Part shown: piece by piece, positions 2,910-14,046 of the stretch | Position numbering within the stretch: the stretch's first letter is position 1 | Layout: every line of letters begins with the position of its first letter | Assembly: GCA_038217285.1 (NCBI GenBank) | Contig: JBBQPO010000113.1 | Coordinates: forward strand, 1 to 18,284 | Direction: 5' to 3' | Length of the DNA: 18,284 nt | DNA from: Chthonomonadales bacterium | GTDB lineage: Bacteria > Armatimonadota > Chthonomonadetes > Chthonomonadales > Chthonomonadaceae | Notes under the pieces: generated by a model | The model's database searches: none | Seen by the model: the letters and a program-made list of their open reading frames with translations, nothing else | Told to the model about the DNA's origin: nothing | Made by a program: the position numbers and the translations under genes

Positions 2910-2950
2910 AGGATACAGATTTACACTTCTCTTTGTCGGGTTTACTCTCT

Positions 2951-4363
2951 ATGATCGCCTGTTTCTATATGCCGCAGATCGCTATCGCCACCGAACGCAT
3001 TCGCGCTCTATCGCTCTGGGGGCAGCCACTGGCCCTGGTCGGAGAGGACGATGCCCTTGTCTGTGTCTCCGAGGAGGCTGCGACGGCGGGTGTCAAGCCG
3101 GGACAGGCCGCAGGCGGTGCGCGGGCGCTCTGCAAACGACTAGTCGTGCTGCCTTATGACCTGGCCGCTTACGAAGCGGCGGCGCAGGTCGTCTGGGAGG
3201 CCCTGGCGGTCGAGAGTTCCCTCGTGGAGCCGGTCGCGCCGGAGATCTGTTATGTACAGTTCGACGGCAGCCAGATCGTTTTGCGGGTGCGGGATCTGCT
3301 GCGGCGACTGGTGGCCGCAACGCGATTCTCGCTGCAGGTGGGGCTGGCCGAGAGTAAGATCGTGGCCTATCATGCGGCGAGGCAGACGGATATTGATACG
3401 GTCTCTCGGGTGGATCGCCTGCCGGAGGAGATTCTGCAGGAAGTATCGCTGGCGTCATGGCCGCTGCTGGGGGAGGTGCCGCAGCGGCAGTTGGCAAAGC
3501 TCGGGATCCGTACCTTTGGGGAGCTGGCCCGCCTGCCGGAGCGAGAGCTGCAGCGTCGCCTGGGGACGCTGGCAGCACACCTCTCCCGCCTCGCCCAAGG
3601 ACACGACAGCGATCCTGTCCGGGCGAAATGGCCTCCGCCCGTGCTCTGCGAACAGGAGATATTGGAGTACGAGGTGACCGACATCACGGTCATCGAGGCG
3701 GCTCTGCAGCGCTGTGCCGCTGGGCTGGCGCGGCGTCTGCGCGGGCGGCGGGAGTTCTGTCGTTCTCTGGCGGTCTGTCTGACCCTGGAAGATCAGAACC
3801 AGTTGCGGCAGCAGGAGCGGCTGGCCGACCCGATCGATCTGGAAGCCTCTCTGTTCCGCGCGGCGCGCCGACTGCTTGTGCGGATGCAGCCGACGATAGA
3901 CCGGCCGGTGGTGGAAATCGCTCTGCAAGCGGGGGAGTTGGGAGCGGGCTCCGGAATCCAACTGGAGCTGATGGACCTGTATGCCAATCCGATGCCGCAC
4001 TTGCGCCTACAGCGACTGCGCACCACGATAGGCCACTTGCAGCAGCGCTTTGGGCTGGGCTGCGTGGTGACGGCGCGCACCCTCTGGCAGGCGCGCCGGA
4101 TCGATCTCTGGACCTACCCGCTCTGTCATCAGGTTCGGGAAGCGGTGCAGGTCATCACCAGTTCTGCCGGAGTGCCGGTGCGCTTCCTGCGGCGTGGAGA
4201 GGTCTATCACGTAGAGACGGTGCATCGCGACTGGCGGGAGGCGGAGTGGGAGTGGGATGAGTTGAGCCTCCATGTTGTCTATCGTATCGAGACGCATCCC
4301 CCAGGGCTGTATGAGCTGCGTCTTACCGGCCGCCACTGGCTGCTCTGCGGCATTGCGGACTGA
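2951..4363 (+). CDS. imuB: ImuB-like, catalytically inactive Y-family polymerase homolog with a C-terminal ImuB-C/DUF6504-like domain
   Basis: Y-family motifs (SEEAATAGVKPGQ, LQVGLAESKIVA, LAKLGIRTFGELARLP) without the catalytic Asp/Asp-Glu (IACFYMP; EPVAPEICY). Clamp-binding-like QLELM, then LQQRFG, then a Trp-rich tail PVRFLRRG...WREAEWEWD...WLLCGIAD. Lies directly upstream of dnaE2. Confidence 0.88.
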   Translation: MIACFYMPQIAIATERIRALSLWGQPLALVGEDDALVCVSEEAATAGVKPGQAAGGARALCKRLVVLPYDLAAYEAAAQVVWEALAVESSLVEPVAPEICYVQFDGSQIVLRVRDLLRRLVAATRFSLQVGLAESKIVAYHAARQTDIDTVSRVDRLPEEILQEVSLASWPLLGEVPQRQLAKLGIRTFGELARLPERELQRRLGTLAAHLSRLAQGHDSDPVRAKWPPPVLCEQEILEYEVTDITVIEAALQRCAAGLARRLRGRREFCRSLAVCLTLEDQNQLRQQERLADPIDLEASLFRAARRLLVRMQPTIDRPVVEIALQAGELGAGSGIQLELMDLYANPMPHLRLQRLRTTIGHLQQRFGLGCVVTARTLWQARRIDLWTYPLCHQVREAVQVITSSAGVPVRFLRRGEVYHVETVHRDWREAEWEWDELSLHVVYRIETHPPGLYELRLTGRHWLLCGIAD

Positions 4364-4376
4364 GGAGAGAAGCGCC

Positions 4377-7300
4377 CTGTTTATCCATCTTCATACCCAT
4401 AGCCCCTATTCGTTCCTGGACGGAGCGTCGAGCCTCGAGGATCTGGTCCGGGCGGCGGCGCAGCACGGCATGCCCGCGCTGGCGCTGACCGATCACAACT
4501 CCCTGGCCGCCGCCGTCAAGTTCGTGGTCTGCTGTCAGGAGTACGGCGTCCTGCCGATCTTGGGCAGTGAGGTGACGATGGAGGACGGTTCTCACCTGAC
4601 CCTGCTGGCGAAAAATAGGGTGGGCTATGGAAATCTATGCCGCCTGATAACGGCCGGTTACGCGCATGGCGGAAGACTGAGTCCCCGGTCGCCCTGGCAG
4701 GCTCTGGAAGTCTGCACGGAGGACGTTCTCTGCCTGACCGGGTGCCGGAAAGGGCGCCTCCCTGCCTTGATACGGTCCCACCGTTATGCGGAGGCGCGGG
4801 CCGAGGCAGAGAGGCTGCGCGGTCTTTTTGCAGGGGGAAACCTCTATCTGGAGCTTCAGGAGGATTTCGACCCCGACTCGCATCAGACCTGTCTGGATCT
4901 GGCGGAACTCGGGCGGGAACTTGGGCTGCCGGTGGTGGCGACCAACAACGTCCACTATGTGCGCCGCGCCGACTATATCACCCACGATGTCCTGCGCGCC
5001 ATCGCCACTCTCACAGACCACGACGCCATTCATGCCGACCGGCCCCTGAATGCGGAACGCTCGCTGAAATCACCGGCGAAAATGGCGGATATCTTCGCCT
5101 GGCACCCGGAGGCGGTGCGGAATACCGTCGTGATCGCGGAGCAGTGTACCCTGGCCCTGCCAAACAAAGAAGATATCACCCCGCGCTACGCGCTGCGGGA
5201 AGGGTGGGACGCGCCGGGCTACCTGCGGCATCTGGCTTTCAAGGGCGCCGAGTTTCGTTATCGGGGAGTGACGCCCATCGTGCGCGCCCGTCTCGAACAC
5301 GAACTCGCCCTAATCACCGATCTGGGCTACGCCGACTACTTCCTGATGGTCTGGGAGATCGTGCGGTGGGCGCGCAAAAACGGTATCCGGGCCACCGGGC
5401 GGGGCAGCGCCGCCGACAGTTGCGTGGCTTATGCGCTGACACTCACCGATGTGGAGGTGATTACGCGGGATCTGCCGTTCGCACGGTTTCTGGTGCCCGG
5501 CAAGACCCCGGATATCGACATGGACTTTCCCAGCGAGCGCCGCGACGACGTGTTCCGCTACATTCTGCAGCAGTATGGAGAGGCGCATGTGGGCATGGCC
5601 TGCACGTTCCATACCTACTGGTCCCGCTCGGCGGTGCGCGACATCGGCAAGGCGCTCGCCCTCGCTCCGGATGTGCTGGAGGCGGTATCCCGGCATCTCA
5701 ACGGGTTCATTCGGGCCGATCAGATCGATCAGGCGTTCGAACGATTCGCGGAGCTGAGGCCCTATGTGAAATATAAGGAGCGATTTCGTCTGCTCTTCAC
5801 GCTCTGCGCCCGCATCGCGGGCTTTCCCCGCCATATTGGAACGCATAGCTCCGGCATCGTGATCGCGCGCGTACCGCTGGCGACCCTCGCGCCGCTGGTT
5901 CCCTCCGCACGGGGCCTGACGCAGATCTGGACGCTCGACAAGGACGACGCCGAAGAGCTGGGAGCTATCAAGTTCGATGTGCTCAGCCTGCGCACCCTCT
6001 CCGCCGTCGGAGATGCCGAGCGGGCGATCCAGACGACGCAGCCGCGCTGGCGCTATAATCGCCTTCCGCTCGACGATCCCGCGACCTATGCGCTGATGCA
6101 GGCCGGGCAGTCGGTGGGAGTGTTCCAGTTTGAAAGTCCGGCCCAGATCGCGCTGGCCGGTTCGCTGACACCGGAGCATTTCGAGGATCTGGTGGCGAGC
6201 GTCGCGCTGATCCGTCCCGGCCCGATCCGGGGCAACGGCGTCAGCCGGTTCGTGGCGGCCCGCAACGGCTGGGTGCGCGCCGACTGCCTGCATCCGGCCC
6301 TGCAGCAGATCCTGGGCAAGACCTACGGCGTCCTTGTCTTCCAGGAGCAGGTGGTGCAGGTCTTCGCCGCCATGACCGGCTGCTCGGAAGCGGAGGCCGA
6401 CAAGATCCGCAAGGGGCTGCTGCGCCACAACAAGATGGGGACGATGGAGGCAGCGAGAACCACGTTCTTGCGCGCCGCCATGACCCTGCACCGCGACCTG
6501 ACGCTGGCGCGAGGGAATCTGCTGTTCGACCAACTGGCGGCCTGGTGCGGTTACGGTTTTACGGAGGGGCATGCAGCCTCCTTCGCGCTAACGGGCTATA
6601 AGACCGCCTACCTGTCGGTGCATCATCCGGCGGCCTATTTCGCCGGACTGATGAACCATCAGCCGATGGGCTACTACAGCGCCAACAGTCTGGCGGCGGA
6701 GGCCCGGCGCCGGGGCGTTCAGATCCTGCCTGTCGACATCAATGAGAGCGAAGATCGCTGCCGTCCAGTCGGCGAAGAGGCTATTCGCCTCGGCTTTCGG
6801 CTGGTGGCGGAGATGCGGGAGGCCGACATCAAAGCGACCGTAGTGGGGCGGAGTGGAGAGCCTTTCCGGTCGCTGCTGGAGTTCTGCTGCCGGGTTCCCC
6901 TGCCTCGCCGCCTGCTGGAGAACCTGATCCTGTGCGGCGCTTTCGACCTCCTGCACGAGCATCGGCGCGGCCTGACGTGGCGTCTGGAAGAGACGCAGGG
7001 GCTGGCGGCAGCTTACCGGGCCGAAGAGGCCGACTCGCCCCAGTCCGCGCTGCGCTTCGGCTCTGCGCGGGAGGTTCCGACCCCCATAGCCGATACCATC
7101 GACGACTTCTCTCTTTGGGACAAGTTTATCTGGACCTGGCGGCTGACGGGCGTCTGTGCAGAGTGCCATGTCTTCACGCATCTGCGCTCGCAACTCGACC
7201 GGTGCCGGGTACTGACAACGGCGGAGGCGATGCAGCAGGCGGCGGGCACACGCGTCACGGTGGCCGGCCTGAATGTCCGACCGCATCGCCCGCCGACCCG

Positions 7301-7598
7301 CAGCGGCAAGCCGGTCCTGTTCACCAGCGTCGAGGACGAGATGGGTCTGCTTCAGATCGTCTGCTTCGGCGCGGAGATCGCAACGCTGACGCCTGTCTTC
7401 CTGACGGCTCCAGCGGTTCTGGTGCGCGGCGTCGTCGAGCGCAAAGGGCGGTCTGTGAGTCTGCGCGCAGAGAAAGCCAAGTTCCTGAGGATGGAAGATA
7501 TCACCACCCGCCTGCCAAAGATCCCAAGCGCGCCTCCCCTCGAAATCGAGGCCGTACTGGGCGAGATGCCTCACCAGGTGGAAGTCTTCGGGCGCTGA
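4377..7598 (+). CDS. dnaE2: Error-prone DNA polymerase III alpha subunit (DnaE2/ImuC type)
   Basis: PHP domain HLHTHSPYSFLDG and LALTDHN; GRGSAADS; catalytic PDIDMDF and KFDVLSL; VGVFQFES; YGFTEGHAASFA; HQPMGYYS; OB-fold HRPPTRSG. Start placed at CTG 4377 behind GAGGAG; alternatives are TTG 4353 and ATG 4311/4272. Confidence 0.93.
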   Translation: MFIHLHTHSPYSFLDGASSLEDLVRAAAQHGMPALALTDHNSLAAAVKFVVCCQEYGVLPILGSEVTMEDGSHLTLLAKNRVGYGNLCRLITAGYAHGGRLSPRSPWQALEVCTEDVLCLTGCRKGRLPALIRSHRYAEARAEAERLRGLFAGGNLYLELQEDFDPDSHQTCLDLAELGRELGLPVVATNNVHYVRRADYITHDVLRAIATLTDHDAIHADRPLNAERSLKSPAKMADIFAWHPEAVRNTVVIAEQCTLALPNKEDITPRYALREGWDAPGYLRHLAFKGAEFRYRGVTPIVRARLEHELALITDLGYADYFLMVWEIVRWARKNGIRATGRGSAADSCVAYALTLTDVEVITRDLPFARFLVPGKTPDIDMDFPSERRDDVFRYILQQYGEAHVGMACTFHTYWSRSAVRDIGKALALAPDVLEAVSRHLNGFIRADQIDQAFERFAELRPYVKYKERFRLLFTLCARIAGFPRHIGTHSSGIVIARVPLATLAPLVPSARGLTQIWTLDKDDAEELGAIKFDVLSLRTLSAVGDAERAIQTTQPRWRYNRLPLDDPATYALMQAGQSVGVFQFESPAQIALAGSLTPEHFEDLVASVALIRPGPIRGNGVSRFVAARNGWVRADCLHPALQQILGKTYGVLVFQEQVVQVFAAMTGCSEAEADKIRKGLLRHNKMGTMEAARTTFLRAAMTLHRDLTLARGNLLFDQLAAWCGYGFTEGHAASFALTGYKTAYLSVHHPAAYFAGLMNHQPMGYYSANSLAAEARRRGVQILPVDINESEDRCRPVGEEAIRLGFRLVAEMREADIKATVVGRSGEPFRSLLEFCCRVPLPRRLLENLILCGAFDLLHEHRRGLTWRLEETQGLAAAYRAEEADSPQSALRFGSAREVPTPIADTIDDFSLWDKFIWTWRLTGVCAECHVFTHLRSQLDRCRVLTTAEAMQQAAGTRVTVAGLNVRPHRPPTRSGKPVLFTSVEDEMGLLQIVCFGAEIATLTPVFLTAPAVLVRGVVERKGRSVSLRAEKAKFLRMEDITTRLPKIPSAPPLEIEAVLGEMPHQVEVFGR

Positions 7599-11585: not shown

Positions 11586-12431
11586 ATGATTTCGGACCCC
11601 CGCCACTCTCGGAGTAGACACGCGTTCACGCTTATCGAACTGCTTGTCGTCATCGCCATCATCGCTATTCTTGCTGCCATCCTCTTCCCTGTCTTCGCGC
11701 AGGCGCGTGAAAAGGCCCGACAGACCTCCTGTCTTAGCAACCTCAAGCAGATCGGCATCGCACTGACGATGTATCAGTCGGACTACGACAGTATGTATCC
11801 GCCGTCGCAGTTGGGGACTGGTACGAACATCGTCTCCTGGCCAACCATGATTCAGCCGTATATCAAGAACGAACAGGTATTCGTCTGCCCGTCTACCTCT
11901 CCGGGGACTTTTGGCGTTGACACCAACTTCATGGTCACTTCCACGAAGCAGTACACCGGCCGGACGAGAACGGCCGTCTCGTTCGGGATTCTAACTGCTG
12001 GAGACGGTACCAACGCTCAACCCTTCCTGGTAAATGCGCTCTCCTACGGGCGCAACCTCATCCCCGACACGACAGCCGCCTGGAAAACCCCCAACTTCAA
12101 AACGGTGAATAATTCGAAAAGCGGCTTCGTGACGACAGGAACGACGCTTTCCGTCATCGAGGCTCAGATTGAAGAACCATCGAACACGATTCATATCTGC
12201 GATTCGATGACTGGCAGCGCCGGCGGCGATCCTACGGTGCAGGGAAACAGCATTCGGGGTATTCAGAGTGAAGATCGCACCGACCATTTCAAGACTGATA
12301 CCGCTTCCAAAGTCTCCTACCGGCATGCAGGCGGGTTCGAGGCGCTCTTCGGAGACGGTCACGCCAAATACCGCAAATGGGGGTCTACCACCCCCTGCGA
12401 GTGGACCATTCAGGCCGACACCTGCCCCTGA
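11586..12431 (+). CDS. Prepilin-type N-terminal cleavage/methylation protein with a DUF1559-like region and H-X9-DG C-terminal motif
   Basis: [75 protein letters not shown] upstream of ATG 11586. Confidence 0.92.
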
Positions 12432-12456
12432 TTTCAGGGAAGAGGTTGGAGTTCAA

Positions 12457-12491
12457 AAAGGCGAGGGGAGGACTATCCTTCCCTCGCCTTT
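12457..12491 (+). terminator. Intrinsic terminator-like hairpin after the prepilin-type gene (possibly bidirectional)
   Basis: AAAGGCGAGGGGAGGA-cta-TCCTTCCCTCGCCTTT inverted repeat ~25 nt after the stop codon. Confidence 0.75.
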
Positions 12492-12557
12492 GCCTGTCCG
12501 GTGCGAAAGGAAAACTCCGGCACTCAAAAATATTTTCAAAATAGTGGGGGAAACCCC

Positions 12558-12586
12558 TTGTCAAGTCTGCCTAGACATGTTATAAT
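12558..12586 (+). promoter_or_regulatory. Near-consensus sigma70 promoter with extended -10
   Basis: TTGTCA (12558-12563), 17-nt spacer, TGt-TATAAT (12578-12586), preceded by an AT-rich UP-like tract (AAAAATATTTTCAAAAT). Confidence 0.85.
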
Positions 12587-12905
12587 AGATCTATGCACGG
12601 AGAGACTTGTAGTTGGCGGCAATTCGTTCTTGTAAACCCGCGTTCTCGTGCCTTTCGTAGAGTTTGACGTTCTGAGAGAGCCGCCGTTGTAATTTCTTCT
12701 CTGTCGGCATTGTGCAGTAAAATTTATTTTGTCTAGTGTGAACATACAGAGCGTTGAGCCCGTCTAATGAAGTAGGATCGGAAAATTCGCCGCTCTCACC
12801 CACAAAATTTAAAGTTGTGTTACACCGGCGCGGGGGGCGTACGGGTAGCCAATCCGGACAGACACTACGCAAGTACTGGGCAACCAGCGTCTCGAAGGAA
12901 AAACC

Positions 12906-12948
12906 GGGCGGAGCAACTCTGGGGGGATGTTGCTCCGCCCACCATTTT
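12906..12948 (+). terminator. 12-bp GC-rich hairpin with a short U-tract (terminator, attenuator or internal RNA domain)
   Basis: GGGCGGAGCAAC-N11-GTTGCTCCGCCC followed by ACCATTTT. Confidence 0.55.
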
Positions 12949-12965
12949 GTCTGGCCGAAGATGCG

Positions 12966-13020
12966 ATTACCTACGCGAGGTGGAAAAGGAATTTCTACCT
13001 CGCGTAGGTAATTTCTAATT
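12966..13020 (+). terminator. 21-bp inverted repeat followed by a T-rich tract
   Basis: ATTACCTACGCGAGGTGGAAA-aggaa-TTTCTACCTCGCGTAGGTAAT (one G-U pair), then TTCTAATTT. Confidence 0.65.
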
Positions 13021-13041
13021 TGGCGGAGGAGACAAGAGACA

Positions 13042-14046
13042 ATGACAATCGCAAATGCGCGTGCAATAGATCTGGCAGAGCTGCCGATGCGTATCGCCGT
13101 CGGGCAGTTCAACGATCTGACGGAGGAGCACCTTGCCTTCGCCCGACAGGTCGGAGCCGAGGATCTGCAGTTGAATACGCCCAGGTTGCCGGGCGAAGAG
13201 CGCTGGGAGTTCGAGGATCTGCGGGCGCTGCGAGAGCGCGCCGAAGCGTCCGATCTGCGCCTTATCGCGCTGGAGAACGTACCAGTGCGCTTCTACGATA
13301 AGATCATGACGGGGGCAGAGGGCCGTGAGAAGCAGTTGGACAACATGATCGCCACGATCCGCAATATGGGGAAGGCGGGCATTCCAATTCTGGGTTATCA
13401 CTGGATGCCGAATGGCGTCTGGCGCACCTCGTTCGAGACGAAGGTGCGGGGTGGAGCGGTCTCTAATGAGTTTGTGTACGAGGAGGTCAAAGACGCGCCT
13501 TTCACGCACGGACGATTGTATACTGCCGAGGAGATGTGGGCGAACTACGACTGGTACATGACGCGCATCCTGCCCGCCTGCGAGGAGGCCGGTGTGCGGA
13601 TGGCCCTGCATCCCGACGATCCGCCCGTGCCGATGCTGGGAGGGGTGGCCCGTCTGTTCACGAATTTCGAGGGATTTCGACGCGCCATGGAGACGCACCC
13701 GAGCCCCATGCATGGCCTGGATTTCTGTCACGGCTGCTGGTCGGAGATGCGAGGCGGCGAGGGCGTTCTCGAAGCCATCGAATGGTTCGGTGCCCGCGGA
13801 CGGCTTTTCTATGTCCACCTGCGCGATGTGCAGGGCTGCGCCACAGATTTCGAGGAATGTTTCGTCGACGAGGGGAACAGCGACATCGTCGCCGTCATCA
13901 AGCAACTGCGCGCCGTAGGCTTTCAGGGCTTCCTTCTGGACGATCATGTGCCGCATCTCGTGAACGATTCGCCGTATGGTCATCGTGGACGCGCCTATGC
14001 CATCGGCTATATTCGCGGCCTTCTCCGTGCGATTCCCGCCGACTGA
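13042..14046 (+). CDS. uxuA: Mannonate dehydratase (UxuA) family protein
   Basis: GGAGGAG RBS. IRNMGKAGIPILGYHWMP, MALHPDDPP, GLDFCHGC, YVHLRDV, DDHVP and YAIGYIRGLL are characteristic of UxuA. Confidence 0.88.
   Translation: MTIANARAIDLAELPMRIAVGQFNDLTEEHLAFARQVGAEDLQLNTPRLPGEERWEFEDLRALRERAEASDLRLIALENVPVRFYDKIMTGAEGREKQLDNMIATIRNMGKAGIPILGYHWMPNGVWRTSFETKVRGGAVSNEFVYEEVKDAPFTHGRLYTAEEMWANYDWYMTRILPACEEAGVRMALHPDDPPVPMLGGVARLFTNFEGFRRAMETHPSPMHGLDFCHGCWSEMRGGEGVLEAIEWFGARGRLFYVHLRDVQGCATDFEECFVDEGNSDIVAVIKQLRAVGFQGFLLDDHVPHLVNDSPYGHRGRAYAIGYIRGLLRAIPAD

Follow-up and report, generated by a model that had tools for sequence, protein, structure and literature searches.

Results

The locus

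The window is the whole 18,284-nt stretch of DNA that was analysed, by which all positions are numbered, and it carries a conserved RNA gene on its + strand. The features are the following.

12524..12552, + strand: A/T-rich, UP-like tract upstream of promoter P1, with similar tracts 5′ of P1 at other loci
12558..12586, + strand: P1, with TTGTCA (12558-12563), a 17-nt spacer, TG (12578-12579) and TATAAT (12581-12586)
12593..12716, + strand: inter-promoter stretch, the earlier domain 1, a non-conserved gap between P1 and P2
12717..12954, + strand: tract near-identical in and common to both copies of the genome, comprising P2, leader and core
12731..12767, + strand: P2, an ECF-sigma-like promoter module, with GTCTAG (12731-12736), GAAC (12740-12743), a 17-nt spacer and CGTCTAA (12761-12767, CGTC at 12761-12764)
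12814..12853, + strand: H1, a two-part hairpin whose inner stem carries an invariant G6 loop (12832-12837)
12853..12899, + strand: H2, a variable central hairpin domain, by per-sequence folds here AGAC/GTCT around two GCAA-capped hairpins
12899..12905, + strand: linker, A-rich and single-stranded by the alignments
12906..12940, + strand: H3, a 12-bp GC-rich hairpin with an invariant G6 and then A in its loop (12921-12927)
12941..12957, + strand: U-containing tail 3′ of H3, the end of the conserved unit
12966..13022, + strand: local hairpin of ~20-21 bp (12966-13012) with a T-rich tail
13042..14046, + strand: downstream uxuA-like gene for a UxuA-like or xylose-isomerase-like TIM-barrel protein, outside the RNA

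An earlier note on this DNA had described a structured RNA of ~430 nt with three domains, lying behind a promoter in 12593-13020 where it saw no credible gene. The absence of a gene is upheld. ORFs overlapping 12593-13020 have no Pfam match, and the 35 homologous core rows, 115–152 nt in length, fall into all three mod-3 classes (9/15/11). Coding potential for 12593-13020 was rejected on the Pfam null and the non-triplet length variation, which argue against it.

The RNA matches no Rfam family either, as the earlier reading had anticipated. Rfam 15 with its 4227 models gave no match at the gathering score over the whole window. At E up to 10, it gave 12 sub-threshold matches in 12400-13100, and the best of them reached 25.4 bits against a cut-off of 80 and lay on the - strand. 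Other RNA genes of the same genome, namely a 6S candidate, the SRP RNA and cobalamin riboswitches, were mapped off this locus.

Taken as one piece, the 428-nt stretch 12593-13020 folds better than its shuffles on the + strand (-157 kcal/mol, z -4.44), and the - strand gives a weaker fold (-138.4 kcal/mol, z -3.39). Segment-wise folding confines the signal to 12814-12957 (z -3.49) and 12958-13020 (z -9.73). The two preceding segments fold no better than shuffles, with z of 0.02 at 12593-12716, where 93 of 200 shuffles are equally stable, and z of -0.98 at 12717-12813. The three-domain RNA of ~430 nt is thus not supported. What remains is an undescribed ncRNA of smaller size, without an Rfam match and with covariation.

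The conserved core

The conserved and covarying unit is the ~145 nt of 12814-12957 plus a ~40-nt leader on the + strand. The earlier domain 3 is the real RNA, and its hairpins and the 12-bp hairpin after it all exist in the folds.

Covariation among the homologs is strong. In 31 aligned copies, 96.3% of the cells pair, and both sides have changed in 21 of the 29 pairs. No shuffle out of 500 matches any of five covariation measures, and slid controls are 32–56% paired. The 31-copy alignment is model-fitted and so favours the structure, but the MAFFT-based result is independent. There, MAFFT and RNAalifold on 15 full copies gave the same two helices, with compensatory change in 12 of 28 pairs.

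The strand is also settled. Alternations of G-U with A-U and of U-G with C-G are frequent among the 31 copies and would be A-C mismatches on the opposite strand, so the RNA strand is +. The earlier claim that the G-U pairs favour the + strand is confirmed by these alternations and by the better + strand fold.

The two helices are H1 and H3. Of the 14 pairs of H1 (helix 1), eight are changed on both sides, and 94% of the cells are paired; for H3 (helix 2), the figures are 13 of 15 pairs and 98.5%. Both G6 runs occur in 35 of 35 rows, which represent 34 copies as the window's own copy was entered under two names. The base next to the run is C in 33 of the 35 rows at H1, and at H3 the run (12921-12926) is followed by A in every row.

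The central domain is more variable. By per-sequence folds, H2 is closed in most genera by a pyrimidine run paired with a GAAGG-like run. The motif GGGAGA lies within the domain in 15 of 35 rows, by eye at the H2 tip, and in the window's genus the tip holds two GCAA-capped hairpins instead. Two closures had been offered for domain 3 here. AGAC/GTCT agrees with the family consensus, whereas CCGGACAGA/TTTGTCTGG is found in the single-sequence fold only and is not kept in other genera.

Downstream of H3, a canonical U-tract is missing at many loci. The 3′ end of the RNA is uncertain and read-through is possible.

Flanking segments and a second copy

The segments outside the core fare differently. 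The long G-U stem that had been drawn as domain 1 (12597-12704) lies in the segment with z of 0.02, and even the ortholog does not preserve it. Neither the paralog nor the positional ortholog, which belongs to another species of the same genus, aligns with the stretch 12593-12716. This stretch is unconserved filler; were transcription from P1 to read through, it would extend a long isoform at its 5′ end.

The nested rod of domain 2 (12736-12825) dissolves as well. With z of -0.98, it largely coincides with the P2 module, and one of its arms is the 5′ strand of H1, which is paired differently in the family consensus.

The final 21-bp hairpin with its T-tract does exist, but it is locus-specific and outside the conserved RNA unit. 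Neither L005, the ortholog, nor L002, the paralog, has it, and several other loci carry unrelated additional hairpins at the equivalent place. The hairpin is likely a local terminator that insulates the uxuA-like gene, and probably marks the actual 3′ end at this locus.

The same assembly holds a second copy at C308:4668-4904, which is 98% identical over 238 nt and has unrelated flanks. The near-identical tract starts ~25 nt upstream of the P2 GAAC and ends just past H3, and it omits P1 and the inter-promoter stretch. Paralogs within a genome are 95–96% identical, as against ~85% between positional orthologs of two species. The UxuA-like and ABC ATPase contexts are nonetheless both common to the two species. 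An old duplication thus appears to have been homogenised by gene conversion, since the paralogs are closer than the positional orthologs although the contexts are shared. This indicates that the two copies have probably evolved in concert.

Two promoter modules

P1 matches 11 of the 12 consensus positions and is the sole such site within 12000-13500, with a predicted transcription start at ~12593. The earlier description of a sigma70 promoter with an extended -10 and an UP-like tract was right in each part, including the A/T-rich tract upstream. P1 with its spacer is conserved in 28 of the 31 loci. Within the spacer, the -35 hexamer recurs in inverted orientation (TTGTCA ... TGACA-like), and this repeat is likely to be an operator.

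A position weight matrix derived from the P1 sites of the 28 loci was run on the 6.2-Mb assembly of this genome. The two RNA loci scored 40.8 and 32.1 bits and the next best site 22.3 bits. Hence, P1 is not a generic strong promoter, as it scores highly at only the two RNA loci of the genome. It lies 41–100 nt 5′ of the core in 12 loci and 149–272 nt 5′ of it in 16, including the one in the window.

P2 lies between P1 and the core, with a predicted transcription start at ~12771-12777. The pattern GAAC-N16-18-CGTC was found in 16 of the 31 loci, 51–96 nt before the core, as compared with a mean of 0.075 loci in shuffles. Fourteen of the 16 have a far-upstream P1, and the other two (L005 and L047) have no P1 detected by the regular expression, that of L005 having an 18-nt spacer. 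P2 is absent from all loci whose P1 is within 100 nt of the core.

GAAC and CGTC spaced by 16–18 nt correspond to a -35/-10 arrangement that is common for ECF sigma factors, and P2 was named ECF-like on that basis. As judged from this consensus, P2 would be an ECF-sigma-like promoter module. Its weight matrix gives 29.2 bits at both RNA loci of the genome and 22.0 bits at the next best site. Among the few genes looked at near P2-like sites, no ECF sigma gene was found. That next best site lies upstream of a glutathione peroxidase ORF.

Dedicated promoters conserved together with the RNA give it, on sequence grounds, a transcription unit of its own.

Distribution across genomes

Homologs of the BLAST type were found in 14 of 61 related genomes. 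A covariance model (R1) extended this to 33 of the 42 Chthonomonadaceae genomes, with none in 26 genomes of two sister families. A second model (R2), rebuilt with divergent members from g12 and g4 that R1 had missed, found the RNA in 37 of the 42. The five misses are four genomes of 67–79% completeness and one copy cut by a contig end.

R2 found nothing in the 26 sister-family genomes. Nor did it find the RNA in other families of a 151-genome phylum sample, apart from one 32-bit match (G096) that was rejected on inspection as an ordinary terminator. A pattern scan of named-species genomes yielded at least 118 stretches, 80 of which were scored by the model. Eleven of these 80 loci were confirmed, the named ones being Chthonomonadaceae, Chthonomonadales or Chthonomonas MAGs, and no other locus among the 80 exceeded 21.2 bits. 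The best DNA match for the RNA region came from a sediment metagenome.

By R2, 32 of the 37 positive genomes are single-copy. Multiple matches are seen in the genus g1, with 2–4 per genome, and in one g12 genome with a second, weak match. The g12 version is compact; it is encoded on the other strand, flanked by the regulator gene and the ABC gene. The g4 version is divergent and occurs, among others, in a complete 3.4-Mb genome; the g4-type copy lies on the minus strand at L179:1330-1478. The divergent g4 and g12 members all have P1 and the two G runs. According to these searches, the RNA is specific to Chthonomonadaceae, a family of soil bacteria in Armatimonadota, and is present in almost every genome of it.

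Expression

Metatranscriptome data hint at transcription of the core. Four runs from four studies (soil, ice, freshwater and soil) gave one short contig each, of 183, 262, 151 and 201 nt at a depth of 2–2.8. The contigs come from relatives, with 4–10 mismatches over 110–153 aligned nt, and their ends and strand are not readable and carried-over DNA is possible. They cover 12804-12956 only, with nothing on 12400-12803 and 12957-13200, which is not evidence of absence. One contig extends from the predicted P2 start to just past H3, and one runs on into an ABC-type neighbour.

Neighbouring genes

The genes around 30 loci were assigned by Pfam, and those of the window's locus separately. The commonest downstream neighbour on the same strand is an ABC ATPase, at 14 of the 30 loci by Pfam and additionally at L031 by reading. 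ThuA follows on the same strand at four loci and a UxuA-like gene at two, and there are further neighbours of other kinds. Upstream, an ArsR-type HTH regulator with a CarH-like B12-binding module is present at ten of the 30. The earlier note had reasoned that a constant uxuA would imply action in cis and variable neighbours action in trans, and the neighbours do vary.

The principal alternative is that the RNA is a cis leader or riboswitch-like element, which would control, through termination at H3, the gene that follows it: ancestrally a corrinoid- or haem-type ABC ATPase, and in this window the uxuA-like gene. The frequent ABC ATPase and the B12-binding regulator speak for it. In NCBIfam, the ATPase comes closest to 'corrinoid ABC transporter ATPase', scoring 331 bits where the cut-off is 537. 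Moreover, at L005 (UxuA-like, in a sister species) and in two or more of the four ThuA loci, the gap that separates the RNA from the following gene shows neither a promoter nor a terminator. These loci may be subject to read-through or to a cis effect.

Several observations weigh against it. Fourteen of the 15 ABC genes have a TATAAT-like hexamer 5–10 nt before the ATG and 30–250 nt from the RNA, so that they look leaderless, each with a putative promoter of its own. The RNA ends against a convergent ORF in g4 and is convergent with the regulator gene in g12. The downstream gene families are mutually unrelated. An invariant loop within the supposed terminator is unneeded by an expression platform. 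Furthermore, the cobalamin model of Rfam detects two ordinary riboswitches elsewhere in the genome but not this RNA.

Hence, a cis leader is improbable as the general role in view of the convergent neighbours, the ABC genes' own -10 elements and the varied neighbourhoods. We regard it as unlikely, and the cis-regulatory option of the earlier interpretation is accordingly disfavoured. The RNA is probably a free-standing, trans-acting regulator.

The B12-binding regulator was considered as a partner of the RNA. A single query at E 1e-20 detected it in 25 of 41 genomes of the family and in 10 of 24 genomes of a sister family, and a regulator-RNA link was rejected since these distributions do not match that of the RNA. 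The P1 inverted repeat was not found upstream of eight regulator genes (up to 200 nt each), and no analogous RNA lies downstream of regulator homologs at four sister-family loci. The idea that the regulator controls P1 is thus unsupported. The portion of the literature available to us held no report in which a B12 photoreceptor module is combined with an ArsR-type domain.

Discussion

A probable free-standing small RNA and its possible action

We consider it reasonably probable that the locus is one of two copies of a free-standing, family-specific sRNA gene of ~150–250 nt. The RNA would act in trans. Its G-rich loops may be the business end, either pairing with C/U-rich target RNAs or docking a protein. 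Its output may be set by two inputs, one a factor on the P1 inverted repeat and the other an alternative sigma factor at P2.

To look for targets, the same genome was scanned for sequences exactly complementary to the loop regions. The 27 and 55 matches of 11-mers formed no pattern. They include the RNA's own two loci and lie mostly inside ORFs by eye.

Possible titration of a protein

The docked protein might be CsrA, with the RNA as a sponge or decoy that titrates it by GGA-bearing hairpin loops. The G run followed by A in all 35 rows puts a GGA into the H3 hairpin loop, and the GGGAGA of 15 rows, apparently at the H2 tip, would supply another. A CsrA gene (PF02599) is over the cut-off in 39 of the 42 family genomes, including this one. 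This near-universality, however, gives no specific link to the RNA, and two RNA-bearing genomes have no CsrA match, namely G012 (70% complete) and G016 (98% complete).

The number and placement of the sites are also a problem. Known sponges have many GGA sites, and this RNA has two or three. Although invariant, the H1 loop has no GGA, with C as the next base in 33 of 35 rows. A classical sponge is therefore not favoured, because the most conserved loop lacks the motif, and we hold titration of CsrA to be distinctly improbable.

Less likely readings

The small, free-standing RNA must also be set against the single large RNA of ~430 nt with three functional domains. P1 points into the whole stretch, which folds better than shuffles. 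Its domains 1 and 2, however, do not (z 0.02 and -0.98), and neither paralogs nor orthologs can be aligned over domain 1. Moreover, the 12 loci with P1 at 41–100 nt before the core imply that the extra 180 nt are dispensable. The large RNA is very improbable.

A more speculative form of trans action is that the invariant G6 loops of H1 and H3 meet, for example as an inter-loop G-quartet platform, where a corrinoid or haem tetrapyrrole, or a protein loaded with one, would bind. The RNA would then be ligand-responsive in trans. If true, this would explain its ancestral home between a B12-binding regulator and a corrinoid- or haem-type ABC ATPase. We give it a very small chance.

The two 98% identical copies in this genome and the partial copies, as many as four, that lie at the ends of contigs in a sister species might suggest a mobile or selfish MITE-like repeat rather than a gene, which is hardly credible, as the RNA is single-copy in 32 of the 37 positive genomes, both contexts are common to two species so that the duplication is old and the copies homogenised, and the base pairs are kept via compensatory change.

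Significance

With the free-standing RNA, Armatimonadota gain an sRNA that is specific to one family, is nearly universal in it and has a well-supported structure. The literature, as far as it was accessible to us, contained nothing on regulatory RNA from Armatimonadota or Chthonomonadaceae. The RNA combines unusual features, which are the invariant G-only loops, a promoter conserved in its spacer, the two-promoter design and the concerted evolution of paralogs. Binding of CsrA or a tetrapyrrole by the G loops, if true, would add a novel type of regulation beyond the model phyla. The complete 3.4-Mb g4 genome with the RNA offers an experimental handle. At present, this is a good candidate family and not yet an explained mechanism.

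Comparison with known systems

The RsmY/RsmZ/CsrB-type sRNAs of Proteobacteria share several traits with this RNA. These are a stand-alone gene, a conserved regulatory sequence in the promoter, several hairpins with G-rich loop motifs, a terminal hairpin and sometimes paralogs, and a CsrA gene is present in the family. CsrB/RsmZ-type sponges, however, carry many GGA motifs in hairpin loops or linkers. The RNA here has 2–3 GGA sites, a pure G6 in the H1 loop and no Rfam match, and it belongs to another phylum.

The cobalamin riboswitch (RF00174) comes to mind from the B12-related neighbourhood, with its B12-binding regulator and corrinoid-type ABC ATPase, and so do Rli55 and EutX, which are sRNAs containing a B12 riboswitch. 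The H2 loop also has some likeness to the B12 box. In contrast to the two canonical cobalamin riboswitches elsewhere in the genome (40.5 and 35.9 bits), this RNA has no match to RF00174 at E up to 10. A diverged cobalamin riboswitch was rejected, as the covariance model does not match.

6S RNA is likewise near-universal, single-copy in the family and ~150–200 nt long with a strong promoter. It differs in being a rod with a central bubble, whereas three separate hairpins are found here. Identity with 6S was rejected because the consensus structure differs and a 6S candidate lies elsewhere, at C75, where the RF00013 model scores 44.9 bits, just under the cut-off of 46.4.

MicA, RybB and MicL of enterobacteria are ECF-sigma-dependent sRNAs. 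They have no kinship in sequence or structure with the RNA here, which has a housekeeping-type P1 too and whose ECF dependence would follow from the motif. The likeness lies in a promoter of the -35 GAAC and -10 CGTC type directly upstream (here at 16 of 31 loci) and in a terminator hairpin.

The CcsR ('cuckoo') RNAs of Rhodobacter and RoxS/RsaE of Firmicutes use C-rich loops to pair with G-rich ribosome-binding sites, and some of them are multi-copy and stress-linked. They are not homologous, and with G-rich loops in the present RNA any target would be C/U-rich. Nevertheless, these RNAs and the present one are alike in their short hairpins and in an invariant, homopolymer-like loop motif that is reused within one RNA.

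Sequences around the RNA copies

In genus g1 of the Chthonomonadaceae, an ATG lies 6–10 nt past the -10 element of P1, the sigma-70-type promoter of the RNA, and opens short ORFs of roughly 24–47 codons, both as judged by eye (window 12593-12668 and its equivalents at L005, the positional ortholog in a second g1 species, the own-genome paralog L002, and L018). Their peptides show no conservation from locus to locus, so these ORFs are probably not genes.

GTCTAG/CTAGAC half-sites recur around the RNA promoters (window 12731-12736 and the upstream regions of L036, L040, L034 and L037), are perfect palindromes in some cases and may constitute a further operator there. Some RNA copies are flanked by short tandem 7–8-nt repeats and by long hairpins of repeated GGTGTCA-like units:

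L023, 5′ of P1: such repeats or hairpins
L036 and L047, 3′ of the RNA: such repeats or hairpins

The highest-scoring site outside the RNA loci that resembles P2, the ECF-sigma-like promoter module, reaches 22.0 bits at own genome C40:2288 (L185:89-). A glutathione peroxidase ORF lies downstream of this site, which may hint at P2 being part of an oxidative-stress regulon.

Elsewhere in the window, an ImuB-like gene (IMS/IMS_C) precedes one for a second, DnaE2-like alpha subunit of DNA polymerase III (2933-7598); the two make up the usual damage-inducible mutagenesis cassette. In one minus-strand ORF (1-996), an NB-ARC-type NTPase is combined with the catalytic domain of an adenylate/guanylate cyclase.

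Neighbouring genes and the upstream regulator

Downstream of the RNA, the corrinoid/haem-type ABC ATPase genes carry a TATAAT-like hexamer 5–10 nt 5′ of their ATG (L002:1735-1770 and 13 other loci), and this spacing suggests leaderless mRNAs in the family. Upstream, at ten loci, stands a regulator gene, and in genus g12 the RNA is inverted between the two genes:

L002:278-1339 (own genome C308:3445-4506): regulator with ArsR/SmtB-type HTH, B12-binding_2 and B12-binding domains
L177:1152-1350, minus strand: P1-RNA unit of genus g12, inverted between regulator gene and ABC gene

The third core hairpin of the inverted g12 RNA, H3, also serves as the regulator gene's terminator, and a degenerate P1-like second copy lies opposite the unit, facing it.

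The same regulator occurs at nine further RNA loci besides L002 and is present in 25 of 41 family genomes. The B12-binding_2 plus B12-binding module is characteristic of the CarH-like light sensors, whose HTH is normally MerR-type. The term 'ArsR' is not mentioned in the portions of CarH papers available through a literature search on CarH. Compared with these sensors, the own-genome regulator has the same B12-binding_2 plus B12-binding module but an ArsR/SmtB-type HTH instead of the MerR-type.
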